Shown: positions 3,613 to 22,967, counted from the stretch's first letter. The stretch: 32,000 nucleotides of DNA from Nitrososphaerota archaeon (GCA_016871995.1 VHBL01000003.1:1-32000), one strand, 5' to 3'. Made by a program: numbers and translations. Notes: generated by a model not told the origin, from the letters alone.

Positions 3613-4545
3613 TTGAGGCGATCGTTCAGAAGAAACCATGCAGATTTAAATCCTCCCTGCCACTTTCTGATTCAAGTGGCAAGGCAAATCTTCCCCAAGG
3701 CTGTAGGTAGCGTAGCCATAGCATGCTCCTTTATAGTGCTGTTCTACCTATTGCTGAATTTGCAAGTCGCTGCTTCGGGCCAGCAAGGTGACCAGTCTAA
3801 CTCTAACTCCAACCCAAGGGTAGGAGGAGGTGTCTCACAGCAGGCACTCTTGCAGTTAGCAGTCAGAGTAACCCTCATTTCAGATGAGGCCCCATATCTG
3901 AGAGTTCTTTCTGGGTTGCCAGTCCAAGTGTCTTGGCAGAGTCTAAACCCCAATAGTCAGAAGATGGAAACATTCTCTGTTGCAGGTACTACTGACGATA
4001 GAGGGAGGGCAATCTTCAGAATATCTCCAGGTAACTATTCACTGCAGGTTACTTGGAATAACATCAAGGGAAACAGATCTATATACGTTGACCCATCACA
4101 AAGGATTCACCAAGTAGACTGGAACATACAGAGCAAGACGATTTCATCTTACACGCTAGAGTTCAAGGATTCGCGAGGAGATGGGAGGGTTCTAGCAGGG
4201 GAGAGGGTAAGACTTTCATACAAAAGTGATGCTTTGATCAAAAACCCTGCACTTGTAGAAATGCGCATTGATAATCCAAACGCACCGAGAATTGCAGGGA
4301 GTAGACCTTCACAGAAGGTTTCAAGTCTGGCGGTATTAGGAATAACCATTGCGGGAGACCAATCATTGCTTGAGCTGACTCCTATCGACCCGCTGGTGGC
4401 ATTTGATTTAGATCCAGCCGCACTGCCCAGAGCGGCGGTTTACAGTATTAGCGTTGAAGGTCAACCTGTAATTCCAATTAGGGAAACTGTGATACCTGCT
4501 GCAAAGCCCAAAGTAGTTGCAGCACAGGCTGAGGAACTCCCATGA
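3613..4545 (+). CDS. Exported/membrane-anchored beta-rich protein; first gene of the MoxR operon (start uncertain, GTG at 3676 gives a cleaner signal anchor)
   Basis: Hydrophobic segment VGSVAIACSFIVLFYLLLNLQVAASG, then a beta-sandwich-like segment TTDDRGRAIFRISPGNYSLQV (CarboxypepD_reg-like pattern). The stop overlaps the next start (ATGA 4542-4545). Confidence 0.6.
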   Translation: MRRSFRRNHADLNPPCHFLIQVARQIFPKAVGSVAIACSFIVLFYLLLNLQVAASGQQGDQSNSNSNPRVGGGVSQQALLQLAVRVTLISDEAPYLRVLSGLPVQVSWQSLNPNSQKMETFSVAGTTDDRGRAIFRISPGNYSLQVTWNNIKGNRSIYVDPSQRIHQVDWNIQSKTISSYTLEFKDSRGDGRVLAGERVRLSYKSDALIKNPALVEMRIDNPNAPRIAGSRPSQKVSSLAVLGITIAGDQSLLELTPIDPLVAFDLDPAALPRAAVYSISVEGQPVIPIRETVIPAAKPKVVAAQAEELP

Positions 4546-5045
4546 TAGTGAATCCCTTTACCGGTTCTCCGTTATTACAGACATTGCTAGGCCTAATTAT
4601 CTTTCTTGCAGCGTTTAGTGTTATTGGGCTGGTCTTACCGTTGTTTAGGGGGAGGGGCTATGAAGATAATGGAGTCAGTGGCACATTGGGCAAAGGTTAT
4701 CAATACTTTTACGGCACAAAAGAAACACTAGAGAAGCTCAAAAATTTCAAAGAAGCCGGAGAGTTTTCTGAGGGCGCCATCCTAGGCTACAAAGCCTTGA
4801 GAAATTTGTTGCCCAAAGTTAACCTGCTCTCCGAAAACAAGGCAAATACTGAACTTGACATAATAAGCGAAATGATCAGGACGTCGCCAGAGCTGCGAGG
4901 TATTGCCCAGCCGATACTGCAATCATATACATACTACGAGAGGGCAAGGTTCTCCAAGCCGTTAACATCTGAAGAGCTTGATGACGCAATTACAGCCTTT
5001 GACAGAGTGTATTCACACTCTACCATAAAGCGGAAGAGGGGCTAG
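4542..5045 (+). CDS. DUF4129-like membrane protein
   Basis: N-terminal TM helix (LLQTLLGLIIFLAAFSVIGLVLPLF). The C-terminal YTYYERARFSKPLTSEELDDAITAF resembles the DUF4129 signature found next to MoxR/DUF58 genes. Confidence 0.6.
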   Translation: MIVNPFTGSPLLQTLLGLIIFLAAFSVIGLVLPLFRGRGYEDNGVSGTLGKGYQYFYGTKETLEKLKNFKEAGEFSEGAILGYKALRNLLPKVNLLSENKANTELDIISEMIRTSPELRGIAQPILQSYTYYERARFSKPLTSEELDDAITAFDRVYSHSTIKRKRG

Positions 5046-5417
5046 TTGGTAAATTATCTCTTTTTCACAATACTGGGGATAGCCGTGATAACAGCCCTTT
5101 ACACAAGGCGGCTGCTTAAGAAAATGACAATTCCCAATCAGGAGGGATACGTATATGAAAAAAGCGAATCTGCGAAAGGTTTGGCAAAACTAGGCGCAAA
5201 GATTCCAGACTATTCTGGTGCTGTAATTATCATTAGAGAGGAGGCCAAAGCCCAGCTACCGAGGCACAGCGCCTTCGATGCACAGCATATAGCACTAAAT
5301 TCTCTTATCGCAAACTGCACAGCGGTTCTGAACAAGGGTCGTGCCACTAAGGAAAAGTTCGTGGAGCTCCAAGGTACACTTCTTAAGATAAATACAAGTC
5401 ATGAAGTAGAGTTGTAA
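5046..5417 (+). CDS. Small single-TM protein of unknown function (TTG start)
   Basis: N-terminal helix YLFFTILGIAVITALY followed by RRLLKK. Packed between operon genes with 0- and 1-nt gaps. Confidence 0.5.
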   Translation: MVNYLFFTILGIAVITALYTRRLLKKMTIPNQEGYVYEKSESAKGLAKLGAKIPDYSGAVIIIREEAKAQLPRHSAFDAQHIALNSLIANCTAVLNKGRATKEKFVELQGTLLKINTSHEVEL

Positions 5418-5418
5418 C

Positions 5419-6390
5419 ATGGCAGACCTTCTTGCGGCCAAAATTTACGAAAAACTGCAGAATGAGATGTCAAAAGTCATAGTAGGCAAGACGGATGTTG
5501 TTAGACTTCTGACCATAGCTCTGATTTCAGATGGACATGTGCTTCTTGAGGGAGTACCAGGAGTCGCAAAAACACTTATCGCAAAATCGTTCTCAAAGTG
5601 CCTTGGACTTGAATTTAGGAGAATCCAGCTCACACCAGATATGCTCCCAGCCGACATTACTGGGACATTTACCTACAATGTTAGAGATCAGGTATTCGTC
5701 TTCAGAGAAGGCCCCGTGTTCTCTAATGTTGTACTTGCTGATGAAATCAACAGAGCGATTCCCAAGACTCAATCAGCTCTACTTGAGGCGATGCAGGAGA
5801 AACAGGTTACTGTTGAAGGAGTGACAAAGAAGCTCCCCGACCCGTTTATTGTTTTAGCAACACAAAACCCTGTTGAGATGCATGGAACCTATCCTCTACC
5901 GGAAGCACAGTTAGATAGGTTCATGTTCAGGCTCATCATAGCAACTCCAGAAGCGGATGATGAGATCGAAATACTGCGAAAGTCTTCAACTGTAGATGCC
6001 GAAGACTTGCAGAATGTTGTTGGGGTAAGAGACATCATAGAAGCCAGAGAAAACACACGGAAGGAGGTTACTGTGTCGAAAGAAGTGCTGAACTATATAG
6101 TTTCTTTGGTCGGGGCGACAAGAAGGGATGCGGAAAGAGTAATGCTTGGTGCGAGCCCGCGAGCATCAGTACAATTGTTGGCAGCATCAAAGGCACTTGC
6201 AGCACTTAGCGGAAGGAAATATGTCACTCCAGACGATGTCAAGAAGTTAGTATTCCCAGCTTTGAACCACAGAATACTCCTTAATCCAGAATATGTGCTA
6301 AGGACTGCCAATGTTGGTCGCCCGTATGACTACGATGCTCTCAATACTATAATCTCGAGTGCGTTGTCAATAGTAGAGCCACCCAGATGA
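5419..6390 (+). CDS. MoxR-family AAA+ ATPase
   Basis: Walker A GVPGVAKT, Walker B VLADEINRA, then PKTQSALLEAMQE and ATQNP, typical of MoxR/RavA-type ATPases. Confidence 0.93.
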   Translation: MADLLAAKIYEKLQNEMSKVIVGKTDVVRLLTIALISDGHVLLEGVPGVAKTLIAKSFSKCLGLEFRRIQLTPDMLPADITGTFTYNVRDQVFVFREGPVFSNVVLADEINRAIPKTQSALLEAMQEKQVTVEGVTKKLPDPFIVLATQNPVEMHGTYPLPEAQLDRFMFRLIIATPEADDEIEILRKSSTVDAEDLQNVVGVRDIIEARENTRKEVTVSKEVLNYIVSLVGATRRDAERVMLGASPRASVQLLAASKALAALSGRKYVTPDDVKKLVFPALNHRILLNPEYVLRTANVGRPYDYDALNTIISSALSIVEPPR

Positions 6391-6395
6391 TTTAG

Positions 6396-7697
6396 TTGCT
6401 TACAAAAAGAGGTATAGCCTTCCTTAACTCAACGTTCGCTCTGGTAGTAATAGCAAGTTTTGGCTTCGATCCACTGTTCACGCCTATATCGCTGATAATG
6501 CTGACGGTGCTCGGCGTAGAAACTATGCTTTATGCAAAGAGCCTTAGAGCTCTTCGATTGACAACCGCAACCAGAAAGCTCTCCGCCGAAAGCGCCTTCG
6601 TTGGAGATACTATTTCTGTAGATCTTGAGATAGAAAACAAGAGCAGGGGATCTTTGGGGCCAATAGTCGTAATAGATCAGATGCCACGAGGTTTCAAGAC
6701 AGCCGCATCTACACAGGATTGGATTCTTTCCATTGATGGCCGCTCCAACCAGCTGATTTACTACGAAATAGAACCATTGCAGATAGGAGACTGGAAATTT
6801 ACAGGCGTTGAGATCACCTTAACTGATAGATTTGGAATATTCAAAACAGTAAAGAGTATTCCTTGCGAATCTCGCATCAAGGTCTACCCAGACATGAGAA
6901 AAGGTGAGGAACTCTTGAAAGGGAGAATTCATTTGGGCATAAGGCCGATAAGACGTTCAGCGATTTCGACTCCACATGGTTCTGAATTTAGCGGAATCAG
7001 AGAATATTACCCCAGTGATGATGTTAGGATGATAGCATGGAAGGCGATGGCAAAATCCGCGATTCAGGAACCAAAGACGAAACAACACGAAAACGAGCAG
7101 GCCATAAACACAATTCTTGTGATATGCAATTCAGAAACTTCGGGAGAGGGTAATGTAGGTAGCAGGAAACTTGACAAGATAGTAGAAACTGCGATAATTT
7201 TCTCTTATCTCGCTTTGAAAACCGGAGGAATGTTCCATGTGGTCTTCTCCCGCGATGGTAAGGTAGAGCGAGTTTCAGGGAGACCTCTTGAAATGGCAAC
7301 TAAGCTCTACAACATAGAACCCGATCCGAAGGCCGATATTGCTGCTTTAATACGCTATGCATCAAAGATAACGCAGTCACGCTCGCTGTTGCTAACAACG
7401 GTAGATTCTCCGTATCCACACAAAATCAATAGTTCCTTCTTTAAGGGTGCAATGATTTCGAATCACTTCTTGCACATCTTGCTTCTTGACACTGCAAGTT
7501 TCTTCCCCATAGAGAGCCCTGATAAAGTCCTTACGATGGCCAGGAACGTTCTTGCTTCAAGGGAACTTGGACACTTAAGGCGGTTACTTTCAGAGTTGTC
7601 AGAGGAAGGAATAACAGGACAGCTCTGTGGTAAAGACGACCTTATGGCCAAGGCAATGGAAGTATTCTCAAACGCAGGAGTGATTATAGAAACTTGA
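6396..7697 (+). CDS. DUF58 (degenerate VWA-like) protein, the usual MoxR partner
   Basis: Two N-terminal TM helices and the DUF58 signature FSGIREYYPSDDVRMIAWKAMAK. TTG start. Confidence 0.88.
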   Translation: MLTKRGIAFLNSTFALVVIASFGFDPLFTPISLIMLTVLGVETMLYAKSLRALRLTTATRKLSAESAFVGDTISVDLEIENKSRGSLGPIVVIDQMPRGFKTAASTQDWILSIDGRSNQLIYYEIEPLQIGDWKFTGVEITLTDRFGIFKTVKSIPCESRIKVYPDMRKGEELLKGRIHLGIRPIRRSAISTPHGSEFSGIREYYPSDDVRMIAWKAMAKSAIQEPKTKQHENEQAINTILVICNSETSGEGNVGSRKLDKIVETAIIFSYLALKTGGMFHVVFSRDGKVERVSGRPLEMATKLYNIEPDPKADIAALIRYASKITQSRSLLLTTVDSPYPHKINSSFFKGAMISNHFLHILLLDTASFFPIESPDKVLTMARNVLASRELGHLRRLLSELSEEGITGQLCGKDDLMAKAMEVFSNAGVIIET

Positions 7698-8662
7698 AGT
7701 TTAGTCTAGTTTTAATCGGGCTATTTGCTGCGATGGCTCTGCCGTATCTTTCGCTTATAATCGTCTCTAATTACTTCTCATACATCTGGCTAGTAGTAAG
7801 GACATTAGGCGAAGTCAAACTTCACTCTATATCAGCACTGATGGCACTGGCATCCGTGGCAGCATACACATTTCGAATTTCAAGGGGTTCTGGTGCAGTT
7901 CAGGATTCTTCAATAATAGCAACATTAACTGTGCCAGTCGTGCTACCGTCTTTGCTCATGGTTGGCTTGTTATTGACTCCTATGCAGGAACAACTTCCCG
8001 CATATTTTTCATCTGCTGCTGATTTGTACTTGGTAGGAATTGCGAGTCTATCAATAGTCCTTCCACTTTTATCCATCATCAACCAAGCATCAATAATGTT
8101 TCTGAACAAGGGAAGTGCTGCAAGTGCCGTACTTATGACGATGATTAACTACGGCTTGATTGCTTTCGTAGGTGTAGTAGGTTCCGAACCACTACCACCA
8201 GAGGGACCAAGCAAGGGCTTGCAGGTTATGGGTGCAAGGATACTTGTGGACTTTTACGCCTTCATGCAATTTCTGATTTCAAGTTTACTAGGCTTAGAGC
8301 AAATAACCAGTTCTCCTTTGGGGAGCGTACCTTGGCTGGCCTCTCCAGACAGGATATTAAATGCGACAATCTTCGCCATAGCATCTGCAGTGTATTTCTA
8401 TTATAGACTGTATCAGAAGAGGGCTGAAGAGGAAGGAGCCCTGACTCTTGTAAAAAGCGGGGGGCCAATGGCAGTAAGCCTGCATAGTATAGGATTCGCG
8501 ATCTTTGCTGCTGTGCTTATAGACGCAGGATTAATATTGGCAATTTTGCTTACTGTGCAGCAATTGCAGCTGGCAGTAGAGCTGTCGATAGTGTTGATGA
8601 TGGCGATGATAATGATACTCGGGTTTGCGGATAGGCTGATGCCAAGGTGGTTTAGGGGATGA
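7694..8662 (+). CDS. Polytopic integral membrane protein (about 8-9 TM)
   Basis: Hydrophobic throughout. The start overlaps the DUF58 stop (TTGA) and the stop overlaps the next start (ATGA). No transglutaminase Cys-His-Asp motif seen. Confidence 0.65.
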   Translation: MKFSLVLIGLFAAMALPYLSLIIVSNYFSYIWLVVRTLGEVKLHSISALMALASVAAYTFRISRGSGAVQDSSIIATLTVPVVLPSLLMVGLLLTPMQEQLPAYFSSAADLYLVGIASLSIVLPLLSIINQASIMFLNKGSAASAVLMTMINYGLIAFVGVVGSEPLPPEGPSKGLQVMGARILVDFYAFMQFLISSLLGLEQITSSPLGSVPWLASPDRILNATIFAIASAVYFYYRLYQKRAEEEGALTLVKSGGPMAVSLHSIGFAIFAAVLIDAGLILAILLTVQQLQLAVELSIVLMMAMIMILGFADRLMPRWFRG

Positions 8663-10362
8663 AGAAAGCATTATTAATATTGGCGCTCTTGCTAATTCCT
8701 CTACTTCCTCTCCAATTGGCTGAAGGTGCCAACCCACCTTTCAAGTTCAAAGTTGGGTACTCTGCTGAGAAGATGTTCGATGCTACCACAGGCGTTCCTG
8801 TTTTTATCGCGGGAGAGACCATTTGGATTTATCCCGGAGAGCCGATAATAGTAAGCATTTCCAGGCCAGATGGGCGACCTGCAGCCGCTGTACCATTGGG
8901 TGAGCATCCATACCCCCTGTACACTTTCAAGGACACAGATATACTTGGGACATGGCTTTTAAGAATAGAATCCAGAGCCGGGCAATTCACCTTTCCAGTA
9001 GAATTTGTTCAGCAGTCCATAAAGCCTGATGGACACGAAGCAAAGTTCTCACTAGAAGAAGATTCGCTAGGAATAAAAGGCATAATTAGCTTCAGCCCAC
9101 CAGAAATTCCCTCATCAACGGAAGTCATACTTGTCAGAAAGAGCAGAAATGAGTCATTGGTAAATATTGCTACCAACGTAACGATAGGAGGTTCGCAGGT
9201 AGTTCTTCAGATAACCAAGGGAGAAGGAGCTGTTACTACATTGAGAGTCTCTCCTTATGCTCCCATAGGAGGAGTTGATTACGAGGCTGATGTTGCAAAT
9301 GGACCCGTGTTTACTACATGGGCCGACATAATCATGGAGATTCCTCTTACAAAGAGGACAGGTCGCTCGCTGATAGTAACCTACGTAGACGATGCGATAG
9401 CAAGAACTCCTAAGGTAGCTACACAGCTACCCGGTCAACCAGAGAATACTCTAGCTCTGAGAATCTCTCCAAGGGGAACAGCCGAAGATTCCGCAACGGT
9501 GCCTACAAAATATGGAAGGGCTACATTAAACGTATACATGCAACAGGGAGCTACGATAAATATCGTCAAGATTCCACTAGTGATACTACCGGGCAGGGTG
9601 GTCATACAACCTGCAGCGACATCTTCTGCAGCACCATTTGCACAACCTCTTCCATATGAATTCCTTGACCCTCTTGGCGACCTTTCTGCTTATGACATAA
9701 TATTGGCTACCAAGATAAACGGTCTTGACAATGTTTGGAGCACTAGTATAACTCCTCCTCTAGCTTCTCTTAAAGTTACAAACACTATAGGCGGAGAAGC
9801 AGTTTCTAACTATGACGTAAATTTCACATCTGGCGTTATTCAGAAGACAAAGGTTGGTGAGACAACATTCGTCCTACTACGGGAAAGAAGAGTTACAACA
9901 TCTTACAACCTTGCTATTGATGGAATTCTTCAAAAGGAAGGTGAATTCCAGCCTGCAACAGTAACGCTTTCACAGCTCTCGGAGGTTTCGGTATTTGCCA
10001 GCCAGGGAAAAGTCCAATTTACTATCATGGGAAGCTTAGGCATACCTGCACCAGCAGGCAACATCACAGTATACAAAGTAACGGGAAACTCGTTTGCCGT
10101 AGTAAAGGAACTCATCTGGCCTGGCGGGGGTTCTGTTAGTACAACTCTTCCCCAAGGAACTTACAGGGCCACCGCTAAAGTTCTGGAAATCCAGCAGTCT
10201 AAAGATTTTGAAGTCAAACAGCCCATCACTTCGGTAGACATCCAGATGCAAAACCTATTCACTAGAGATGAGTTTAACTTGGTTGGCGCCTCTTTGGTGA
10301 TAATGTCTTCAGAGATTGTGTTTGCGATACTGGTCTGGAGAAGAGCACTAAGGTCTAAGTAG
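8659..10362 (+). CDS. Large exported protein with signal peptide and a C-terminal TM anchor plus basic tail
   Basis: Signal MKKALLILALLLIPLLPLQLAEGA. Beta-rich body (TLPQGTYRATAKV). C-terminus is DEFNLVGASLVIMSSEIVFAILVWRRALRSK. Confidence 0.75.
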   Translation: MKKALLILALLLIPLLPLQLAEGANPPFKFKVGYSAEKMFDATTGVPVFIAGETIWIYPGEPIIVSISRPDGRPAAAVPLGEHPYPLYTFKDTDILGTWLLRIESRAGQFTFPVEFVQQSIKPDGHEAKFSLEEDSLGIKGIISFSPPEIPSSTEVILVRKSRNESLVNIATNVTIGGSQVVLQITKGEGAVTTLRVSPYAPIGGVDYEADVANGPVFTTWADIIMEIPLTKRTGRSLIVTYVDDAIARTPKVATQLPGQPENTLALRISPRGTAEDSATVPTKYGRATLNVYMQQGATINIVKIPLVILPGRVVIQPAATSSAAPFAQPLPYEFLDPLGDLSAYDIILATKINGLDNVWSTSITPPLASLKVTNTIGGEAVSNYDVNFTSGVIQKTKVGETTFVLLRERRVTTSYNLAIDGILQKEGEFQPATVTLSQLSEVSVFASQGKVQFTIMGSLGIPAPAGNITVYKVTGNSFAVVKELIWPGGGSVSTTLPQGTYRATAKVLEIQQSKDFEVKQPITSVDIQMQNLFTRDEFNLVGASLVIMSSEIVFAILVWRRALRSK

Positions 10363-10891
10363 TGAGAATCTCTTCTTTCTTTATAGGAACTTGTTGCTTT
10401 GATCGCAGATAAAGCACGGCTGCAAAACCTAGCACCCACAGCATGCCGAAGAATATGCTTGCAAGGTTAAGGAAATGGTACCCTGCAGCCTCGCCTAATT
10501 GCTCTCCAAGAGTCCGTATTTTTCCTCTCAAAGTGTCCATGCCTATTTGATAAGCCTCCTGCTCCCTAGACAATCCTCCAATAGCTCTTGCCAAGTCTAT
10601 CAAGCCAGTCATATCATTCTGTATGAGCCCAAAATCCGTCCTTGTGGTTGGGAACCACCAGACAGGGTTGCCTGATTGTGGAATTAACACTCTTGATTTT
10701 TGAAGCGCATCGGCCATCAGGTCTGGAGTTGGTGCAGTTTCAGCCCTGCTTAGAAATGCCTTGGCGCTGTCTATAGAATAATATGATTCTAGGTAGTGAT
10801 TGTACACTAGGACGGCTCCAACTACGATGAACACCAGTAATATTGCGTTGTAGACTTTCTGGCTCAAATCTCGACTGGCAATCCATAGCAC
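10355..10891 (-). CDS. Bitopic membrane protein (TM at both ends, helical middle); last gene of the sortase/GT2 operon
   Basis: GTG start abuts the GT2 stop (TAA|GTG). N-terminal helix ILLVFIVVGAVLVY and C-terminal helix IFFGMLWVLGFAAVLYL. Confidence 0.6.
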   Translation of the reverse strand: MLWIASRDLSQKVYNAILLVFIVVGAVLVYNHYLESYYSIDSAKAFLSRAETAPTPDLMADALQKSRVLIPQSGNPVWWFPTTRTDFGLIQNDMTGLIDLARAIGGLSREQEAYQIGMDTLRGKIRTLGEQLGEAAGYHFLNLASIFFGMLWVLGFAAVLYLRSKQQVPIKKEEILTT

Positions 10892-12337
10892 TTATGCCTT
10901 ATATGCAATTCCTGTCTTAGTTGAATGAGCTATCGTCAGAACTGCCACGTAGGTAAATCCAAGAGTCAGAAGGACGATATACGGAATGACGAAGAAGTTT
11001 CCCGTTATTATGGCTACCATGAAGGCATAGACACCGTACAGTGCCAGTGCTATTTCCGCCAATGTGGTTTTTGTGAACGGGAGGACGTACTTCTTGTCTT
11101 TCCAAGTGTCAGTATTCTTTACTATTCCAAACTTTGGCGTTCGCAGGAACTCGCTCGGCTTTTTGATCAGACCCTCTACCACCGCCCTCGAATTGTTGAC
11201 CGATATTCCTGCTCCAAACAATAGCAGGTAGAAATAGTTGGATAGTTTTAGAGGCCATTTATTGCCGTAAATCTTCCAGAGCGAGTATGTGAATATTGGA
11301 GGGCTGATAACTAGCGTTGCGACCAAGCCAGTTTGGGCAGCAATTTCATAACGTCCTAGCATAAGAGCGGGAAGGATTAGCAGGTGTGCAATTACCAGAG
11401 GGTGTACGATGTGCCTGGTCAGCTGTACGAAAGCTTGAACCTTCGTAATGTATGGAACTCTTGCTGTTAGTATCTGTTTTAGCAATCTTCTTGCGCACTG
11501 AATTGAACCTTTGGCCCATCTGAACTGCTGCCTTTTTGAAGCGTTTATCTGGACAGGTAATTCTGCAGGGCACGAGACATTGTGCAGGAAGACCAACTTC
11601 CATCCTCTTAGCTGAGCCCTGAAGCTCAAGTCCAAGTCTTCTGCGAGCGAGTCTCTCCACCCTCCAGAATCAACTATGCATTCTTTCCTCCACATCCCCG
11701 CAGTGCCGTTAAAATTCATGAAGAGTGCTGAGTTGCTCTTTCCTTTCTGTTCTACTAGAAAATGCGTGTCAAGATTTATCGACTGAGCCTTAGTGAGTGT
11801 CGAATAGCTCTCGTTAAGGTGCCCCCATTTGACCTGAACCATTCCTATCGATTTAGATGAAAAGTATGGAAGAATGTCGAGCAAGAAATTCTGATGGGGA
11901 ATAAAATCAGCATCGAATATCGCAATAAAATCTCCTCTGGCATCGTTCAGTCCGTATTGAAGGGCCCCAGCTTTGTACGCTATTCTGTTCTCTCTGGTCA
12001 GAACCCTGATAGCAAAACCCTGTTTTATGAACTGCTCAGCCACTGACTTTGTTATCTCCCTTGTCGAATCTGTTGAATCGTCAAGAACCTGCACCTCCAT
12101 TCTGTCCTTAGGGTAATTCAGCCTGCAGACTGCCTGAATTAGCCTGTTTACAACATACTGCTCATTGTAAATCGGGAGCTGAATCGTGACAAATGGGAAT
12201 TTGTCAAGAGGAACCTTCTTTGGAGGATTGCCATTCTTAACGGAGCGATAAAGGAGATAGTACACATTGGCTCCGTAGAATAGCATTATCCACGAAATTG
12301 CAATGTAAACTAGATACAATAAATCGCTTGGAGCCAT
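10892..12337 (-). CDS. Processive family-2 glycosyltransferase, cellulose-synthase/CslA-like beta-glycan synthase
   Basis: PIYNE...VLDDSTD, FDADF (DxD), LAEDLDLS (TED-like) and RQQFRWAKG (QxxRW), flanked by N- and C-terminal TM helices. Confidence 0.9.
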   Translation of the reverse strand: MAPSDLLYLVYIAISWIMLFYGANVYYLLYRSVKNGNPPKKVPLDKFPFVTIQLPIYNEQYVVNRLIQAVCRLNYPKDRMEVQVLDDSTDSTREITKSVAEQFIKQGFAIRVLTRENRIAYKAGALQYGLNDARGDFIAIFDADFIPHQNFLLDILPYFSSKSIGMVQVKWGHLNESYSTLTKAQSINLDTHFLVEQKGKSNSALFMNFNGTAGMWRKECIVDSGGWRDSLAEDLDLSFRAQLRGWKLVFLHNVSCPAELPVQINASKRQQFRWAKGSIQCARRLLKQILTARVPYITKVQAFVQLTRHIVHPLVIAHLLILPALMLGRYEIAAQTGLVATLVISPPIFTYSLWKIYGNKWPLKLSNYFYLLLFGAGISVNNSRAVVEGLIKKPSEFLRTPKFGIVKNTDTWKDKKYVLPFTKTTLAEIALALYGVYAFMVAIITGNFFVIPYIVLLTLGFTYVAVLTIAHSTKTGIAYKA

Positions 12338-12340
12338 TCG

Positions 12341-13318
12341 CTAACTGCCTTCAGGGCCTGCAACAGGTTGCAAATTAAACTGTCCTCTTCTTTTGTATAG
12401 TGCAGATTCTATTTTGCCGACTGCAAAAAGAAAAACCACAACCCAAGGCAGAAAGAGCATCTCTCCTGCAACGGCATGAAACTCTTCAAACCTTGCCCTG
12501 TCAGCACTTACAAGAAGGACATAGGAAGCAAGCGAAAATATTCTTACGATGTTGATCAGGAAGGTGCCAAATGCGCCGACTGCAAAATAGATAATCCTTC
12601 TTTTGTTTGTCGTTTTTATCTTGATGAGGAATAGGAACATTATGAGAGAATATATCATTATGCTGTGAACTCCTGCTGAAGGCCAGAATACTGAAATCGA
12701 AAACGTGCCATGCATGCCATCAAGAACCATAGTATTGTTCGAAACCGCAACAGAGCCAAGGTTTAATGCGATTATCATTGCGGAGACGCTCCACAGAATT
12801 ATTGGCACAATGGCTTGCAAAGGGCCTAAAGTGTCAAATGGAAAGAAAGCATCTAACGTCAGTATTAGAGCCATCCCAAGAAGATAGACGTTTGCCGATG
12901 CAAGAAACCTTATGGCTTTCAACCCGAATACTGTCGGAATCAGGAAAAGGAGAAACAGGAAGAAGATGATGTAATCCCACAACCATATCCAGCTAAAGAC
13001 AAGTGGAATGTTCAGAGCCTTGCCAGCATTTTCAATAGCTGCGTGTAGCGAAAATTCTGCCCCTATCAAATAAACTGATACAGCTGCGCTAAGAGCTATC
13101 GCTGCGATTATTCTAGAACTGTTGATACGGTTTGATAGGGAGTTTTTAGAATCCAGAAATTCCAGTACCACGAAAAACATCGCAAACAAGAATCCTCCTC
13201 TACCCTGATTCCAAGCTGCTAGGAGCGAGTTGTAATCTAGCGCCGTTATTACAAAAAGTGGGATTGCAAGAGAAAGGAAGAAGAGCCTAGCATTTGAATT
13301 GAGCATTAGTCTAGACAT
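12341..13318 (-). CDS. Exosortase/archaeosortase-family polytopic membrane protein, with Ser at the expected Cys position
   Basis: About 8 TM helices. The block ISVFWPSAGVHSIMIY resembles the family's ...C-x-G..S block. NIVRIF follows 45 residues later (conserved Arg), then FHAVAGE. Sits in an operon with the GT2. Confidence 0.7.
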   Translation of the reverse strand: MSRLMLNSNARLFFLSLAIPLFVITALDYNSLLAAWNQGRGGFLFAMFFVVLEFLDSKNSLSNRINSSRIIAAIALSAAVSVYLIGAEFSLHAAIENAGKALNIPLVFSWIWLWDYIIFFLFLLFLIPTVFGLKAIRFLASANVYLLGMALILTLDAFFPFDTLGPLQAIVPIILWSVSAMIIALNLGSVAVSNNTMVLDGMHGTFSISVFWPSAGVHSIMIYSLIMFLFLIKIKTTNKRRIIYFAVGAFGTFLINIVRIFSLASYVLLVSADRARFEEFHAVAGEMLFLPWVVVFLFAVGKIESALYKRRGQFNLQPVAGPEGS

Positions 13319-13319
13319 G

Positions 13320-13793
13320 TCAAGCCTTAGATTTTGCAGGGAGATATGACAGTGAAGAGTTTCCCGAACTGTGTTTCTTGTAAGCCCGCAGGACGTTCTT
13401 TGTATATGATTCTACATCGGCCTTATGAACTTCCTTATCATTAAACCATCTATATTCGCCCAATTCTCTGTTGTCAAGTTTAACATCGCTATTGCTGGCT
13501 CTGCAGAGGAAGTCAAAAAATAGATAATGCATGGGCTTGTAATATTCTTCAGAAAATATGGCTTCCTGCACCAAGAGCAGTTTGATCGGGATGACATCCA
13601 AGCCTGTTTCCTCCTTGACTTCCCTGACAATTGCCTGCTCTGCACTCTCCCCGACTTCTATATGCCCTCCTGGCACTGTCCATTTCTGATGTTTCCACTT
13701 TGGAGACTTTACAAGCAAGATCTTATCGCTGTTGATGATTAATGCACCAACCGTTGGCTCTGGGAACTTCTGCGACATTTGCAATCCATGCAA
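13320..13793 (-). CDS. Nudix hydrolase (likely true start at Met6, 13778)
   Basis: Nudix box GGHIEVGESAEQAIVREVKEETGL. The stop is 1 nt from the archaeosortase ATG. Confidence 0.88.
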   Translation of the reverse strand: MHGLQMSQKFPEPTVGALIINSDKILLVKSPKWKHQKWTVPGGHIEVGESAEQAIVREVKEETGLDVIPIKLLLVQEAIFSEEYYKPMHYLFFDFLCRASNSDVKLDNRELGEYRWFNDKEVHKADVESYTKNVLRAYKKHSSGNSSLSYLPAKSKA

Positions 13794-14082
13794 ATTGCGG
13801 ATATATGAACTGAGTTGCTAGAGCGCCGTTGTATATTGAGTGTTGCATACATACGCATGACTCTCCCGTATGAGGGCACTAAACGCCCTTGTGTGCAAAA
13901 ACTAAGACGGGTGGGGCCTAACATGCGATCAGCTTTCTCTGTCTTAATTGTCTCATGGTGTAGAGTAAGCTTCTGCAACTGTATGAGATCATTGCCGTGT
14001 CATTATTGGCCTCTGATTAGTTGAGTGATAACATATAGCATTGACAAATCCTTATTAGAGTTCCAGCATCAAAGAAGGAAGA

Positions 14083-15494: not shown

Positions 15495-18215
15495 TTGGCA
15501 TTGAGGAAACTGCTCGTTGGATGGCTTCTGGTAATTCTCCTGCTCCCAATAGTAGCGACCAGCATAAACGCGCAGCAGCAATCAGATCCGACAAGAACCT
15601 ATGACGAAGTTCTGAGCTTGAACGTAGTCAGCAATGTTGGACTGTGGAAGATTAAAGAAGTAGGAGTCAACGTTTCATCTCTGAAAGTTTCTGCTGCTGA
15701 AAACATAGCAAACGTGCAGGAATATGAGCTTCTATTCACAAAACATTCCGAATACGACTCAAGGGTTGAATTCTTTAAGTCTTACGGCTACAATGTTCTA
15801 GGTTTTGACATTCTTCCCCAGCAGGGCGCGGTACTGCGGGTTAACACTCCATCGTTGGAAGCTGCTAGGCAAGTCGCCACAGTGTTAGAGAATACCTTCA
15901 GGTTGAGCTTCATCCTCATAAGGAGCACCGGGAACAACCATCTTTTCTATTCCGGCGCTGAACTGGGAAGACCTCAGGATCAAAAGTTCTTGCCGATAAA
16001 CCTCTGGAACCTGTTTACTGGAAGAGGTGGATTCGATAGGTTGGTGACTATGGACACCTTCCAGATCAACCCAGTGCCGATGCTTGCATTATACGGAAAA
16101 CGAGAAACATCAGGCTTCACTTATACCATCTGGGTTGGAGGAATAACTGCTGACGCAACGGCCAATTCAGCCATAAGGTACGACAACTTCTTCCAGTTCA
16201 TACAGACAGGAGGAATAAATGCTTCAAGAACGGCAAAGACATCCACGATAGAGTTCAAGACCTTTGGTCAGTTGGTAACACCTCAAGATAAATACGATTT
16301 TGCCCATGTCCCAGATGTTAGAGGGAGCACAGCAGTCTCTCTGATGTCGCCGAATGAGAATAGGTCGAGGTTCAATTTCGACTACAAAAGGACTCCAGGC
16401 AATCTTGTTGTCACTAGGTCTGTCGACAAGACAGCAGCTGTCGCTGGGGAGACTCTGGAATACAGGATAAGGTTTGAGAACACAGGGCCTGTAGGGCCTA
16501 CGGCTGGCGGCACATCAATAGATTTCGTAAATGCGAGAGAAACATGGTTGCAACAACACTTTGATGTCGTACGTGCAGAGTCGAACTTTACAATAAGGAA
16601 CCTCGAACCAGGTACATCAAAGACCTTCGTCTATATCTTGCGTGCAAGGACCACATCTGAAGCTGTAGCATCCACGAGCCAAACGGATAGCACCTTCAAC
16701 TTCAACTACACTGTTGCTAACAGGAAGTTCACTTCGACCGTAATGGCAAACGATATGAACATAGTTCTGAACAGAGGGGCAGCGGCCCTAGTGGCCGAAG
16801 CCTCTGTAACAGAGTATTACCCTACGACACCGGGGAACTCAAGCCTTGTCCTGCTGATAAGAAATGGAGGAACGCGAACTGCATTTAATGTAAGAGCGTT
16901 CTTGGGCGACAATCTGATAACTACTGTGCCTTCAGTCGCACCGGATCCAGTCAGGCCAGAGAGAGTTACAACCCCAATACCTTTCGACAACTTCGCTCTT
17001 AAGAAGCGCGACCTGTTCTGGAGGATAGAGTGGACTGATGACAACAGAGTCCAATCAGTAAGGTCAAACACGATACCTATCTTTGAAAACTATACTTCCA
17101 CGGCAGTGCCCAAGCTGTCTGTGGAAAAGACTTCGGTGCAGAACAAGACAAAGGGCGACGGGATATATGAAACTAAAATTACCATAAGGAATGGCGGCAA
17201 GACGCCTACTGGAGCATTCGAAATACTGGACTTTCCTCCAAAGGGAACGACATTTTCATCTGGAGACTTCTCGCCTTCTGGGCAAGGAGTTTCTACGATA
17301 ATAGACAACATACTGCCAAATTCCAGCAAGACGGTATCCTATCTTAGCAGGGGACTATCGAAGATCAACATAATCACTGGTCCTGCATTTCTCAGGTTCA
17401 AGATAGGAGAGCAGACTTCGGAAGTACTTACCAAGTCTATAGTAAGTGCTGATGCTGTAGTACTTGAAAAGACTACTAACACGCAGAAGGGCTTCATAGG
17501 CTACAACTTTACCGCAAATATCAGCCTCAAGAACGAGGGCGTGGAAAGCATCTACAACGTTGCGATAGACGGTAGGGATTCTCCGCTAAGAGTCGTCAAG
17601 GGAGACAATGTTGCGGCAAACGAAACTCTGGCTCCTGGCCAATCCGTCAACCTGCAGTACAGCCTCCAAACATTCAGAGGACAGAACGCTTCCCAAATTG
17701 GTGCCTATGCAAGGTTCACTCTTGCAGGTGCCATACTGGAAACTGCTACGAAAGCCATCCCTATAGAAGTGTACAACGCGCCTCAAGTTAGGATAAGGCT
17801 CTCAGAGCCCGGCATATTGGATAACAGGCCTTACACCGTACTCCTTGAGATTGAGAACCCTGCCCCTATCTCGATAAATTCACTTTCAATTGTGCCTAAC
17901 GTTATTGAAAACTTCAGAATCAGTGGAGGAGACCTAGGTGCTCAAGTTTCAAGGCAGATGGCTCCGGGAGAGAAGATTACGGTGTCAGCAACAGGAATGA
18001 GCACTCAGCCCAACAAGCCGATGCGCTTTGCTCCAAAGATAACCCATGTTTACGAAGGTCAGACCGTGAACGTGCCAATCGCGGAGCTCAATGTAGTCGT
18101 TGGCGAGGATGTCATGGCAAGGTTTTCGCTGCCAGTAGGAGCTGGGATTGCGATAGTTCTAGTGACATGGATACTTGTCAGAAGAGCTGTGCAGAAACCA
18201 GAGGAAAAAGATTAG
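15495..18215 (+). CDS. 906-aa exported surface protein with repeated CARDB/DUF11-like Ig-fold modules and a C-terminal TM anchor
   Basis: Signal LLVGWLLVILLLPIVATSINA. Repeated segments such as VDKTAAVAGETLEYRIRFENTG, VEKTSVQ...YETKITIRNGG and LEKTTN...FTANISLKNEG. I count 13 N-x-S/T sequons. C-terminus is FSLPVGAGIAIVLVTWILVRRAVQKPEEKD. TTG start. Confidence 0.8.
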   Translation: MALRKLLVGWLLVILLLPIVATSINAQQQSDPTRTYDEVLSLNVVSNVGLWKIKEVGVNVSSLKVSAAENIANVQEYELLFTKHSEYDSRVEFFKSYGYNVLGFDILPQQGAVLRVNTPSLEAARQVATVLENTFRLSFILIRSTGNNHLFYSGAELGRPQDQKFLPINLWNLFTGRGGFDRLVTMDTFQINPVPMLALYGKRETSGFTYTIWVGGITADATANSAIRYDNFFQFIQTGGINASRTAKTSTIEFKTFGQLVTPQDKYDFAHVPDVRGSTAVSLMSPNENRSRFNFDYKRTPGNLVVTRSVDKTAAVAGETLEYRIRFENTGPVGPTAGGTSIDFVNARETWLQQHFDVVRAESNFTIRNLEPGTSKTFVYILRARTTSEAVASTSQTDSTFNFNYTVANRKFTSTVMANDMNIVLNRGAAALVAEASVTEYYPTTPGNSSLVLLIRNGGTRTAFNVRAFLGDNLITTVPSVAPDPVRPERVTTPIPFDNFALKKRDLFWRIEWTDDNRVQSVRSNTIPIFENYTSTAVPKLSVEKTSVQNKTKGDGIYETKITIRNGGKTPTGAFEILDFPPKGTTFSSGDFSPSGQGVSTIIDNILPNSSKTVSYLSRGLSKINIITGPAFLRFKIGEQTSEVLTKSIVSADAVVLEKTTNTQKGFIGYNFTANISLKNEGVESIYNVAIDGRDSPLRVVKGDNVAANETLAPGQSVNLQYSLQTFRGQNASQIGAYARFTLAGAILETATKAIPIEVYNAPQVRIRLSEPGILDNRPYTVLLEIENPAPISINSLSIVPNVIENFRISGGDLGAQVSRQMAPGEKITVSATGMSTQPNKPMRFAPKITHVYEGQTVNVPIAELNVVVGEDVMARFSLPVGAGIAIVLVTWILVRRAVQKPEEKD

Positions 18216-19288
18216 CGCTCCCTTTTGCCCTCTACGAATTCGATGAACCTTCTCTTCGCCTCTTCGTAGGGTAGTTGTTGAGGGGGATGCTTGAAGCAGT
18301 ATGAGGAGACACTGGTCAGCGATCCTGAAACGCCTCTCTCCAGCCCCAATGCTGTTCCTCTAATTGCGTCTATCATTATACCTGCACTGTTGTAAGCATC
18401 CACGACATGCAGTTTCAAGTCTATAGTTAGGGGGATGTTTCCGAAATACCTCCCTTTGAGGTAGACGTAGCATATCTTGTCGTTGTCGAGGAAGTTGACG
18501 TAATCGCTAGGGCCTATTCTTGTTGGGACATCGTACGGAGCCATAGCCCTTACTGCACTTGTCTTACTCTCCCTCTTATCAACTAGCCTGCTCTCTTCGA
18601 GCATGTTCAAAAAGTCCGTATCCCCTCCAAGGTTCAACTGGTAGGTTTCATCGACCTTCACTCCCCTATCCACGCAGAGCTTTACGATAGTTTTGTGCAG
18701 AACTGTTGCGCCGAGCTGGCTCATCACATCATCCCCTGCAACTGGCAGGGAAGCCTTGGAGAACTTCTGCTCCCACTCCTCGTTGGAAGCGATGAATACG
18801 GGCATAGCGTTGACGAATGCAGCCTTTGCTGCTATAGCCTGTGCAGCATAGAACCTTGTCGCTTCCCCGCTGCCTACTGGAAGATAATTTACTACAATGT
18901 CGGCTTGAGCGTCAGAAATAGTGTCAGAAACTTCTGTAGGTTCAACTTTATCGAGGGGGACGACATCTTTAAGATACTTTCCTATGCCGTCAAGTATCTT
19001 TCCCTTCTTCACCTTTACGCCCAGCCTTGGCACATCCGTTATTTTGATTGTATTGTTGGGCTTCTCGAAGATCGCTTCAGAAATGTCTTTGCCAACTTTC
19101 TTTGCATTCACATCAAAGGCTGCAACAAATTCTATGTCTCCCGGTTCATAGCCTCCAAGCGAATAACTTGTCAAGCCAATGGAATCTTCTTCGCCCCTAA
19201 TCTTGTAGTATTCGGCGCCTTGAACCAAGGCTGAGGCGCAATTGCCTACCCCTACCAGAACAACCCTAATCTTTCGCAAAGCTGACAC
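18212..19288 (-). CDS. ino1: myo-Inositol-1-phosphate (inositol-3-phosphate) synthase, GTG start
   Basis: IRVVLVGVGNCASALVQGAEYY N-terminus and LNLGGDTDFLNML, as in prokaryotic Ino1-type MIPS. Confidence 0.92.
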   Translation of the reverse strand: MSALRKIRVVLVGVGNCASALVQGAEYYKIRGEEDSIGLTSYSLGGYEPGDIEFVAAFDVNAKKVGKDISEAIFEKPNNTIKITDVPRLGVKVKKGKILDGIGKYLKDVVPLDKVEPTEVSDTISDAQADIVVNYLPVGSGEATRFYAAQAIAAKAAFVNAMPVFIASNEEWEQKFSKASLPVAGDDVMSQLGATVLHKTIVKLCVDRGVKVDETYQLNLGGDTDFLNMLEESRLVDKRESKTSAVRAMAPYDVPTRIGPSDYVNFLDNDKICYVYLKGRYFGNIPLTIDLKLHVVDAYNSAGIMIDAIRGTALGLERGVSGSLTSVSSYCFKHPPQQLPYEEAKRRFIEFVEGKRER

Positions 19289-19658: not shown

Positions 19659-20201
19659 TTAATCATGGCTATGATGTGGCACGACGGGCATCTGGCAACA
19701 CCAAAACTCTCGCAGCGGGGCCTGCATTCTTGCCATAATATCGACTCCTCCTGCGTCGAATCCTACCGAATTATTTCCCTCTACAAGGAACAGCGAAATC
19801 TCACTTGAACGCTTGGGTCTTGAAATATCATCGGAGTGATCTAACACGGTGTACAGTTACTTCAATCCGTTCTTGAGCGAATTCCAGAGAGGCCAGAGTG
19901 GTAGGCATCTAGGGTCAACTCCGGGTGAGACAAGACCACCAATGTTGAGGAACATGACTAGATCGTCTTCGAGGACAGGATCGTGAAGCCCGTCGAGTAT
20001 CTTTCTGAAACTGATTTCTTTCTCCGCGTACTTACCGCTTGGTCCCCCAACCAAAAGCCCACGAAGGAGCGCTGTCCGGCGATCTACAACATGACAGATG
20101 TCATCTGGATGTGTGCCAGGATTGTCTAGCTGCACGAGGCGCCGCTGAAATGAAGCCCGACCGAAGTCCGCAGAATCGGCCATCAGTGGAGAAAGAGTCA
20201 T
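19659..20201 (-). pseudogene. Cyclase/kynurenine-formamidase-family gene (PF04199-like) interrupted by an in-frame TAA; probably decayed
   Basis: ORFs 20201-19857 and 19847-19659 share one frame and are separated only by a TAA (19859-19857) plus 3 codons. NPGTHPDDICH resembles the HxGTHxDxPxH metal motif, with the first His and the Pro lost. VGFDAGGVD resembles the distal G.D..S.D block. The N-terminal region is short. Confidence 0.45.
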
Positions 20202-20227
20202 TAGGTCTATCGAGCCACTCCGGGCTT

Positions 20228-21055
20228 GTGGACGACGGCGACCTGCGGGAGCTACTGACCAAGTTCGGACTCACCCTGTCCGAAGCGGATGTCTTCATCA
20301 CCCTCGCGCAGCTCAGGAAATCGGGAGGCGGATGGGTAAGCGGAGCCGAGCTGGCAGAGCTGGCCGGGAAGCCCCGCGTAAGGGTATACCAGATAATTCA
20401 GGCCTTGGTTGGGCTCGGCCTCGTCCAGGCCAGCTTCGGGAGGCCCAAGGAGTATTCGGCGGAGCCGCCCCAGGTCGCGATGAGGAAGCTGGTCGCGGCT
20501 CAGGAGAGTAAGCTCAACGAACTGGCCCACCTCGAACAGCCGGCCGTCGAGGAGCTCCTGAGGCTGCCTCCCCTGGAGGATGGTCAAGGGGCCGGGAGGA
20601 GGTCGAGGATGTCGTTCAACATCGTTCAAGGGATTCCGAACATCCAAACCGCGATAAAGAGCGTCCTCAGATGCGAGGGTGCCTCCGTCGTGGTCAACAG
20701 GCAGTCCGTCGACCAGCTTGTCCCGACGCTGGGGTACCTGAAGGATGGACCGAGGTCGTTACGGCTCCTCGTCACGGGCGGGGCGGCCATGCCCAAATAC
20801 GCGCGCAGGATAGGAAGGAAGGGCAGGCAAGTCGAGGTGAGGCGTCTCGCAGAGGAGATGCCGACGACGGTGCTCACGGAGATGACGTTCGTGCTCCTAC
20901 TCTACTCTGTCGAGAGCTACAGGCCGAAACCCCTATCTCGGCCAAGGGACAGGTCCACTGCCTCGTACTGCGTCTCGGTGTCGGACGATTCTTACCTGAA
21001 GCAGGCGGGGTGCCTCTTCCAGTCGCTCTGGCGCTCAGCCGGGGGAGCATCTTAA
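20228..21055 (+). CDS. TrmB-family transcriptional regulator (wHTH plus C-terminal domain); GTG 20228 proposed as start, ATG 20150 possible
   Basis: LLTKFGLTLSEADVFITLAQL...SGAELAELAGKPRVRVYQIIQALVGLGLVQASFGRPKEYSAEPP, followed by the coiled segment LVAAQESKLNEL, is the TrmB N-terminal pattern. The 5' part of track ORF 20039 overlaps the divergent gene. Confidence 0.8.
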   Translation: MDDGDLRELLTKFGLTLSEADVFITLAQLRKSGGGWVSGAELAELAGKPRVRVYQIIQALVGLGLVQASFGRPKEYSAEPPQVAMRKLVAAQESKLNELAHLEQPAVEELLRLPPLEDGQGAGRRSRMSFNIVQGIPNIQTAIKSVLRCEGASVVVNRQSVDQLVPTLGYLKDGPRSLRLLVTGGAAMPKYARRIGRKGRQVEVRRLAEEMPTTVLTEMTFVLLLYSVESYRPKPLSRPRDRSTASYCVSVSDDSYLKQAGCLFQSLWRSAGGAS

Positions 21056-21090
21056 AGGCAGGTGTGCCGAATACTGATGGAACTGAGCCC

Positions 21091-21783: not shown

Positions 21784-21828
21784 TTCGGGAAGAAAAGGTA
21801 TTTGGTCTGGCCGGGAGCACGCCCATCC

Positions 21829-22309
21829 ATGCAGCAGCTGCCATACCTATTCGCGGAGGGCCTCGCCTTGGGCCTTCTGTCGACAGCGGTAATGACACTC
21901 TTCGAGCTGCCGGCCTGGAGGAGGTGGGGGTATACGGGGAGTCCTCGAGTGGCATGAGAACGAGGAGATCTGCGCGAAGCTTGGAGGGAGGGGAGGCGGG
22001 ACCAACTATGCGGGGGTCTTCGGGCTGCACTTCATCAACGGCGGAATAGCGGGAGGATCTTTCCCGGTTATCAGGCAGACCTTCCCGATATTCGGGTCCT
22101 TGCCGCTGCCTCATTACGGCCTCCTCTTCGGCGCCACCCTCTGGATTCTCAAGCTTCTTCCCATCCACAGGCCTATAACGGGTCTCAGCGTATGGAGGCA
22201 CCCTCTGGGACGCGGTCCCGCGCTGGTGAGCATCGCAGGACATTTGATCTATGACTTGACCATGGCCTTGCTCGGCACGCTCTTGTACTGGCCGAATGTT
22301 AGTTTGTAA
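21829..22309 (+). pseudogene. Small (~160 aa) 4-TM membrane protein split by a +1 frameshift at a G5 run
   Basis: Frame 1 reads MQQLPYLFAEGLALGLLSTAVMTLFELPAWRRWG... and stops at 21955-21957. Frame 2 is open from 21896 and continues ...GIRGVLEWHENEEICAKL...LPHYGLLFGATLWIL...WPNVSL* (end matches track ORF 22100-22309). Removing one G from ggggg (21926-21930) fuses them. Confidence 0.5.
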
Positions 22310-22363
22310 GTTTCTATGCGAAATTACAATCTGGTCATAAGGCGTGCGTTTCTTACCTTAGCC

Positions 22364-22810: not shown

Positions 22811-22967
22811 GGCAGGGGCCTTTTTTTCTTGGTGATGTTGCTTGGGACATACCGTCCCACGGGTCAAGAGCTCTTCTTTTTCTGGTCGGTGGCAGGAGAC
22901 CTGGAGCCGGGGTGGAGGTGCTCTGAATTATTTCTCGCTGGAAGGAATGCCAGACAGCAAGGATGGC

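Follow-up and report, generated by a model that had tools for sequence, protein, structure and literature searches.

A thaumarchaeosortase and a synthase-type glycosyltransferase in one predicted four-gene envelope operon of a Nitrososphaerota lineage

In a stretch of 32,000 nucleotides from a Nitrososphaerota archaeon (GCA_016871995.1, VHBL01000003.1:1-32000), which was analyzed over its full length and is called the window in the following, a tightly packed cluster of four minus-strand genes was identified. It codes for a Nudix hydrolase, a thaumarchaeosortase, a membrane-bound glycosyltransferase of family 2 (GT2) and a small protein with two transmembrane (TM) helices, which by homology is a detached part of the GT2 synthase. 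The cluster is read here as a lineage-specific envelope operon uniting two genes that are widespread in the Nitrososphaerota and unlinked in the ammonia-oxidizing archaea (AOA), and in which protein sorting and glycan export would be functionally dependent on each other; we regard this reading as evenly poised between right and wrong. The coupling of protein sorting to glycan export is deduced from gene context only.

The arrangement had been described beforehand, in a sequence-only reading of the window, as four minus-strand genes with gaps of 1, 3 and 0 nt. This was confirmed, as all open reading frames (ORFs) were found where they had been placed (Table 1) and every junction could be read directly. 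Between the Nudix and the sortase gene the sequence is GCT TGA c ATG TCT, with the stop codon at 13322-13320, the start codon at 13318 and a gap of 1 nt. The sortase and GT2 genes are joined by AGT TAG cga ATG GCT with a gap of 3 nt, and the GT2 gene is followed without any gap and in the identical frame by the two-TM ORF (GCA TAA GTG at 10889-10894). The listed Nudix ORF begins with a TTG at 13793, and an in-frame ATG at 13778 was judged by eye to be the likelier start. An A/T-rich element, TTCATATAT (13809-13801), is located 23-31 nt upstream of this ATG and was marked by eye as a putative promoter element. It lies within the 289-nt gap which separates the Nudix gene from a divergent ferredoxin-like gene. 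A single promoter just upstream of the Nudix gene would lead to co-transcription of all four genes.

Table 1. Operon genes, operon-bearing lineages and further features of the window (HAS, hyaluronan synthase; aa, amino acids).
Feature	Position or loci	Strand	Description
Nudix hydrolase, operon gene 1	13320..13793	-	probable start ATG 13778
Thaumarchaeosortase, operon gene 2	12341..13318	-	predicted exosortase/archaeosortase-family polytopic membrane protein, Ser214 at nucleophile position
Membrane GT2, operon gene 3	10892..12337	-	predicted processive synthase class (BcsA/CslA/HAS-like)
Two-TM protein, operon gene 4	10355..10891	-	predicted detached C-terminal module of the GT2 synthase
Intergenic region, putative operon promoter	13794..14082	.	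A/T-rich TTCATATAT 5' of the Nudix gene
Operon lineage 1	window, L001, L093-97		79-87% sortase identity
Operon lineage 2	L081		66% sortase identity
Operon lineage 3	L082-84		50% sortase identity
Operon lineage 4	L002, L085-87		48% sortase identity
Convergent seven-gene block	3613..10362	+	three single-TM proteins, MoxR AAA+, DUF58, 8-TM protein, 567-aa secreted protein with C-terminal TM anchor
906-aa secreted protein	15495-18215	+	DUF11/CARDB/BatD-like repeats, C-terminal TM helix and RR tail (...PVGAGIAIVLVTWILVRRAVQK)

The neighborhood of the sortase gene was surveyed in 80 species-representative (GTDB) loci. The operon arrangement was found in two of them, L001 with 79% and L002 with 48% sortase identity, and the 78 AOA-type loci carry the labels Nitrosopumilaceae, Nitrosotenuis, Nitrosarchaeum, Cenarchaeum, Nitrosopelagicus, Nitrosotalea, Nitrosomirales and similar. 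The co-occurrence of the four genes in related genomes, which the sequence-only reading had proposed as a check, therefore holds for the closest related lineages and fails across the Nitrososphaerota as a whole. Within the clade of the window, the order Nudix-sortase-GT2-module is kept on every contig long enough to show it. The gene order is not due to chance, since it recurs in four divergent lineages (sortase identity 48-87%) with different DNA 5' of the Nudix gene. This upstream flank consists of the ferredoxin-like gene, RadA and the 906-aa DUF11 surface protein in the window, of menaquinone genes in L082, of Tat and EMC3-like genes in L085 and of other ORFs, lacking a RadA match, in L001. 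At least three replacements of this flank took place, even among relatives sharing 79-88% identity. A neighbor-joining tree groups the operon-bearing sortases together, as the sister clade of the AOA sortases, so that the operon probably arose once. After this probably single origin it was kept, down to about 50% identity, in surroundings that were rearranged. A metagenome scan for close relatives yielded five loci, all belonging to the subgroup of the window itself. Residual synteny between the ferredoxin-like gene and the GT2 gene was considered and rejected, as the 103-aa ferredoxin-like ORF of the window has no BLAST match among the ORFs of the GT2 loci L088-L100, those located 5' of the GT2 gene included.

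The product of the second gene matches the NCBIfam model TIGR04297 ("thaumarchaeosortase") with 260.8 bits at a cut-off of 250 (residues 28-311) and the superfamily signature TIGR04178 with 43.2 bits at a cut-off of 23 (residues 209-303). No other model of the NCBIfam scan was matched, the XrtG model included, and the Pfam family Exosortase_EpsH gave sub-threshold scores only. The proposed placement of 12341-13318 in the exosortase/archaeosortase superfamily, for which these searches with hidden Markov models had been set as the check, was upheld, and judged by its sequence the protein is a bona fide member of the already curated thaumarchaeosortase family. Relatives in the databases, among them proteins of Nitrosopumilus, Nitrosotenuis and Nitrososphaerales, are named thaumarchaeosortase by NCBI and JGI, and relatives are present in at least 508 GTDB species representatives. 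One of them, with 45% identity and of the typical AOA type, was found in locus L039 (BMAH01000059.1), which was deposited as Gammaproteobacteria bacterium BBSC-SA02 and is probably of archaeal origin, misplaced by binning or contamination.

In an alignment of family members S214, R259 and H281 are invariant (19/19), embedded in the motifs FWPSAG(V)HS and N256..R259, and the Ser/Arg/His positions are common to the window sortase and the members from Nitrosopumilus, Nitrosotenuis, Nitrosotalea and Cenarchaeum. More distant relatives were collected by an exhaustive profile search (334 representative clusters). Those which also score on the models for ArtC, ArtD, XrtX and XrtG have WPCAG in the column where the window sortase has WPSAG. 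Across 16 sequences including distant relatives, R259 is invariant and H281 nearly so. According to the alignment, the Cys of the exosortases, the presumed nucleophile, is replaced here by Ser214 beside the retained Arg and His, and the window sortase accordingly lacks the conserved Cys nucleophile that serves as a criterion of the superfamily. Its conservation in all 19 thaumarchaeosortases of the alignment marks the Ser as a subfamily trait and not as a sign of decay of the window copy. Due to this change from Cys to Ser, the chemistry of the sortase may differ from that of ArtA and the exosortases.

The AlphaFold2 (AF2) model of the sortase (pLDDT 83) consists entirely of helices except for a small three-stranded beta-sheet just before the Ser. 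A sequence profile search of the PDB gave nothing up to an E-value of 1, and a Foldseek search with the model returned only noise (best E 0.14, TM ~0.2) and no PDB fold match. Fusions of the sortase to Nudix or GT2 domains were looked for in longer homologues of 409-642 aa and found in 0/10, one of which carries a Yip1 domain. The literature searched contains no paper on the function of thaumarchaeosortases, which agrees with the earlier remark that the system is uncharacterized in archaea, and likewise none on the function of the thaumarchaeal GT2 synthase.

The GT2 protein has Pfam matches to Glyco_tranf_2_3, Glyco_trans_2_3, Glycos_transf_2 and, more weakly (6e-8), Glyco_transf_21. Its motifs PIYNE, DDSTD, FDADF, EDLDLS and QQFRW, listed in the sequence-only reading, were all recovered from the translation. 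In 24 orthologues the residues D86, D87, K122, A123 and G124 (UDP-binding), D142/D144 (DxD), E233, D234, Q270/R273/W274 (QxxRW) and F397/R399/T400/P401/K402 are invariant. The last group, F397-L-R399-T400-P401-K402, is located in an inter-TM loop of the AF2 model and resembles, by eye, the gating loop of BcsA (FxVTxK). The model (pLDDT 87, pTM 0.87) has five to six TM helices and aligns over its full length with BcsA (Foldseek E 4e-21, TMq 0.66-0.68, 494 columns). Hyaluronan synthase (HAS) was matched with a TMq of 0.63, as were plant CesA and the archaeal PcManGT, and the top sequence match in the PDB is again BcsA (8e-19). Motifs and fold both support the earlier assignment to the QxxRW synthase type. 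As far as sequence and model go, the protein has the complete catalytic motifs, a loop motif that by eye resembles the gating loop, and a fold like that of processive beta-glycan synthases which translocate their product across the membrane. It remains far below the equivalog cut-offs of CelA (100.6 vs 699.1), PRK11498 (72.8 vs 992) and PgaC (96.6 vs 422.3), and no PilZ domain was found in the Pfam scan. Features of Wzx/Wzy-dependent exopolysaccharide systems, looked for as Pfam families of flippases, polymerases and co-polymerases, were absent from the 27 window ORFs scanned.

GT2 orthologues with 50-56% identity are present in Nitrosotalea, Nitrososphaera, Nitrosocaldus and Nitrosopumilaceae, and most of them have a length of 670-763 aa. 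Their additional C-terminal region of about 150 aa is a homologue of the 178-aa ORF that ends the window operon, which matches residues 518-649 of the 673-aa Nitrosotalea GT2 (E 1e-27) and residues 597-753 of the 763-aa Nitrosocaldus GT2 (E 1e-26). In the window ORF, hydrophobic helices at residues 13-31 and 143-161 enclose a loop of about 110 aa, which is probably extracytoplasmic. The loop motif LP..GNPVW.FPT..TDF is nearly invariant and, together with eA.PY.YVS before the last helix, is conserved in 31 module sequences. Outside this GT2 family no relative of the module was detected in the libraries searched. The description of this ORF as bitopic had to be given up, as it has two TM helices and its homology identifies it as the split-off C-terminal module of the synthase, fused to it in the AOA.

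The single in-frame stop between GT2 and module (TAA|GTG in the window) also occurs in L001, L082, L093, L097 and L099. The two ORFs are in different frames or overlap in L002, L081, L098 and L100, and the AOA fusion is uninterrupted. Readthrough or recoding at the junction was considered and rejected. As the window stop is a TAA and the ORFs of other lineages lie in different frames or overlap, the split is genuine. Either several splitting or fusion events have taken place in this gene, or its junction is evolving. The split and the fused form offer a natural experiment on how such a synthase is built.

The first gene encodes a Nudix protein with a Pfam NUDIX score of 80.8 bits and an intact Nudix box, GGHIEVGESAEQAIVREVKEETGL. 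None of the NCBIfam equivalogs was reached at cut-off, the top one being NudC (65.8 vs 158). An analogy to GDP-mannose mannosyl hydrolase had been suggested from the sequence alone and was abandoned, since the corresponding model NF011963, with a cut-off of 146, gave 29.7 bits and was outscored by many other models of Nudix proteins; the protein appears as a generic Nudix hydrolase. The nearest solved relatives (E ~1e-11) are MutT-type enzymes and plant NUDX1, a hydrolase of prenyl diphosphates and oxidized nucleotides. The enzyme would plausibly act on a nucleotide- or diphosphate-linked precursor. Nudix orthologues with 56-83% identity are located 5' of the sortase in L001, L002, L082-87 and L093-96. 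A further gene on the same strand was noted 5' of the Nudix gene in L002 (6507-7103), L082 (6777-7292), L085 (6689-7156) and L087 (139-645). It codes for a soluble, helical-looking protein of about 155-171 aa with no Pfam match on record, is absent from the window and L001 and is conserved in the more divergent operon-bearing lineages, where it may be a fifth operon member.

The cognate signal of the thaumarchaeosortases is presumably PEFG-CTERM, following the NCBIfam annotation. PEFG-CTERM proteins have been reported in AOA, S-layer-associated proteins and a membrane-anchored multicopper oxidase being among them, and are co-expressed with amoABC and nirK (PMC6593220; bioRxiv 10.1101/175141; PMC9122916). 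The models for CTERM signals matched neither the 567-aa and 906-aa proteins of the window nor the two-TM module, even at E-values up to 10. A scan for a C-terminal TM helix plus basic tail over all ORFs of 102 loci returned mostly the sortases themselves. As a separate observation, an ORF for an NHL/Vgb-like beta-propeller protein in L102 (3877-4488, minus strand) ends with ...PEFSVNTPVLIAVIFAAALVVGKARDRRK, which comprises PEF, a TM helix and a basic cluster. It adjoins P0254, the nearest Cys-type relative of the window sortase, and represents a classic sorting signal beside its sortase. The context of the basal or Cys-type relatives could be viewed on contigs of 1.4 kb and 5 kb, the second of which has this PEF-tailed neighbor and no GT2 gene.

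In the mechanism proposed here, the synthase together with its module would polymerize a nucleoside diphosphate (NDP)-sugar and extrude the resulting glycan. The Ser-type sortase, acting at the outer face of the membrane, would remove the anchor at the C-terminus of secreted proteins (in AOA presumably PEFG-CTERM proteins) and would then pass these proteins on to an acceptor in the envelope, which is either formed by the synthase or dependent on its product. A glycan or glycolipid serving as acceptor or as matrix would be an example of such a dependence. This coupling is supported by the block outlasting the rearrangements around it, by the very tight junctions and by the independent sortase-GT2 precedents in bacteria. 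An operon of one clade which joins genes unlinked elsewhere is a classic kind of evidence, and here it yields a testable link between C-terminal sorting and a conserved envelope glycan or glycolipid. It concerns two genes that are both widespread in an archaeal group ranking among the most abundant worldwide. Should the presumed substrates be the PEFG-CTERM copper proteins co-expressed with the ammonia-oxidation machinery, the link would also bear on the way in which this machinery is attached to the cell surface.

Several results weigh against a functional dependence of sorting and glycan export. No match to the GT2 family profile occurs near the sortase in any of the 78 AOA-type loci; in 45 of these the contig extends 3 kb or more beyond the sortase in both directions. 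The fused GT2 gene of the AOA lies amid exosome, ERCC4, PIN and NAD-kinase genes on Nitrosopumilaceae-type and Nitrosocaldus contigs, and L098-L100 carry a split GT2 and module with no sortase nearby. A C-terminus of the PEF/PEFG type, followed by a TM helix and a basic tail, was found neither in the window ORFs nor beside any thaumarchaeosortase in the fetched loci. The 567-aa and 906-aa proteins do end with a TM helix and a basic tail, and lack a conserved motif before it; the helix of the former looks like a retained interaction helix and not like a cleaved signal. In L082 the packing is less tight: its gene calls leave gaps of 203 nt and 77 nt, and the last ORF directly adjoins the stop codon of the GT2 gene. 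Finally, as the clade is monophyletic, the coupling rests on probably one ancestral rearrangement.

The main rival explanation takes up the last point and regards the adjacency as inherited and not functional, one ancestral rearrangement having put two independent housekeeping envelope genes behind the Nudix gene and descent having preserved the order. The sortase, with its dispersed protein substrates, and the synthase, with its glycan, would then work separately. We consider it a serious possibility, although a somewhat doubtful one. The monophyly of the operon-bearing sortases fits it well, and so does the lack of linkage in the AOA-type sortase loci (78/78) and in the GT2 loci L088-90 and L098-100. 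The signal scans, by which the block encodes no sortase substrate, point in the same direction. It is less easily reconciled with the persistence of the block in lineages whose proteins share only about 50% identity, despite at least three replacements of the upstream flank, with junctions of 0-3 nt in the window, and with the independent pairing of sortases and GT2 enzymes in bacteria.

According to a second alternative, which we hold to be unlikely, the GT2 is a lipid- or carrier-directed glycosyltransferase, forming glycolipid head groups of thaumarchaeal membrane lipids or, as in the case of the crenarchaeal PcManGT, a dolichol-linked glycan. It would supply the glycosylated lipid to which the sortase attaches proteins, resulting in a glycosylphosphatidylinositol (GPI)-like anchor. 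Lipids of the glycerol dialkyl glycerol tetraether type bearing hexoses are abundant in Nitrososphaerota, which is a point in its favor. The identity of 50-56% to the orthologues of Nitrosocaldus, Nitrososphaera, Nitrosotalea and Nitrosopumilaceae suggests a housekeeping role, the match to Glyco_transf_21 concerns the ceramide glucosyltransferase family, and PcManGT, a membrane mannosyltransferase, is among the top sequence and fold matches. In Haloferax, moreover, the substrates of ArtA are lipid-anchored and dependent on lipid-synthesis genes (PMC9385802). The best full-length folds, however, are the polymer synthase-translocases BcsA (0.68) and HAS (0.63), in a comparison set without a solved lipid GT2 of this class, and the QxxRW motif, the loop resembling the FxxTxK type, the five to six TM helices and the two-TM module fit a channel-forming synthase.

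A broader version of the coupling can also be conceived, in which the Ser-type sortase moves PEFG-CTERM proteins, such as the multicopper oxidases of AOA co-expressed with amoABC, onto a glycan or glycolipid made by the GT2. The synthase would then be the partner hitherto missing for the thaumarchaeosortase, and a cell-wall-like or GPI-like anchoring would be widespread in the Nitrososphaerota, with its genes forming an operon in one clade only. This extension seems improbable to us.

A dedicated-target system like that of XrtG, in which the sortase would process or activate the synthase via the C-terminus of the module itself, is very unlikely: the module gene does lie in the sortase operon in the window clade, its C-terminus looks tripartite (eA.PY.YVS / GEAAGYHF motif, TM helix, R/K cluster) and XrtG cassettes encode a CTERM target beside the sortase and the glycosyltransferases, but the AOA module is fused to the GT2 far from the sortase, the tail after its TM helix is long (about 17 aa), the CTERM models find no match in it and the AOA have a separate annotated PEFG-CTERM signal.

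Beyond the operon, a convergent block of seven genes (Table 1) containing the Pfam families AAA_3/MoxR and DUF58 lies in the same order beside it in L001, L002, L081, L082/83, L093 and L097, which is wherever the far side is visible in the clade. The 3' ends of its 567-aa gene and of the two-TM gene overlap by 8 nt (10355-10362), and a tail-to-tail overlap likewise exists in L081. The block is reminiscent of Bat/MoxR-DUF58 modules and may belong to the sortase system. The C-terminal TM helix of the 567-aa protein (10240-10362) has a membrane-embedded Glu and the motif E.V.A.LVWR[RK]AL, which is kept in homologues only 37% identical, while the residues before this helix are not conserved; this suggests a specific intramembrane partner. 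The 906-aa surface protein, located 1.7 kb from the operon, lies outside the conserved block, and the loci fetched contain no homologue of it.

The region 20001-25000 has a GC content of 0.56-0.62, compared with 0.41-0.50 in the remaining window, and codes for a TrmB-like regulator, a B12-binding-domain protein, a fasciclin-domain protein, an unassigned protein of 390 aa and a 429-aa NmrA/NAD(P)-binding protein. In this the region resembles an island gained by horizontal transfer. A myo-inositol-1-phosphate synthase (MIPS) gene at 18212-19288 (minus strand), an inositol monophosphatase-family gene at 25820-26632 (plus strand) and a second Nudix gene at 26664-27122 (plus strand) were also noted. 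In about 25 of the 78 AOA-type loci a MIPS gene likewise follows the sortase, about 3-8 kb downstream; this may be mere synteny or a link to lipid head groups. The Rfam and tRNA scans detected neither Rfam families nor tRNAs in the window.

The thaumarchaeosortase of AOA (TIGR04297) is among the closest known systems. It is a lone gene in AOA-type loci, lying monocistronically between Nre and a convergent DinB-type polymerase gene on the AOA contigs examined, whereas the window gene is the second in a four-gene glycan-synthase operon. The TIGR04178 superfamily signature is shared with archaeosortase A (ArtA) of Haloferax volcanii. The nucleophile of ArtA is reportedly a Cys, from mutagenesis work in Haloferax. 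The window sortase differs from ArtA in this position, where it has Ser214. ArtA functions together with lipid-synthesis enzymes and not with a GT2 synthase, and its signal is PGF in place of PEFG. Experiments support ArtA as the model case for surface proteins being cleaved at the C-terminus and attached to lipid (PMC5744192; PMC9385802).

The window GT2 shares with BcsA-BcsB, PgaC-PgaD, HAS and plant CslA/CesA the D, DxD, ED and QxxRW motifs and the fold, and it has a loop that by eye resembles the FxxTxK type. Synthases of the BcsA/PgaC type have an accessory membrane partner, and the partner in the window would be the probably extracytoplasmic two-TM module of about 150 aa. PcManGT of Pyrobaculum calidifontis (PDB 6yv7) is an archaeal membrane GT2 with a minimal cellulose-synthase-like fold, to which the window protein matches with 6e-12 and a TMt of 0.73-0.78. 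It comprises about 350 aa with fewer TM helices, compared with 481 aa plus the 178-aa module and a full-length alignment to BcsA and HAS for the window GT2.

The XrtG and XrtP cassettes have an exosortase-family gene beside a membrane GT2, as in the window. This likeness is architectural only, since the window GT2 scores far below cut-off on the associated GT2 models (TIGR03111, 47.9 vs 363.95; NF053846, 46.5 vs 520). The XrtG cassette of Lactiplantibacillus consists of four genes coding for a CTERM protein, the sortase and two glycosyltransferases (PMC12854382). It has an adjacent CTERM target, whereas the window has no recognizable one and instead a Nudix gene and a split synthase module. 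The view that the pairing of a sortase with a synthase-type GT2 is unprecedented is weakened by this cassette and by the NCBIfam families of "XrtG-associated" and "XrtP-associated" GT2. The operon linking the two thaumarchaeal genes and the split or fused state of the module appear to be undescribed in the literature searched; cassettes of a sortase and glycosyltransferases as such are a known kind of system in bacteria.

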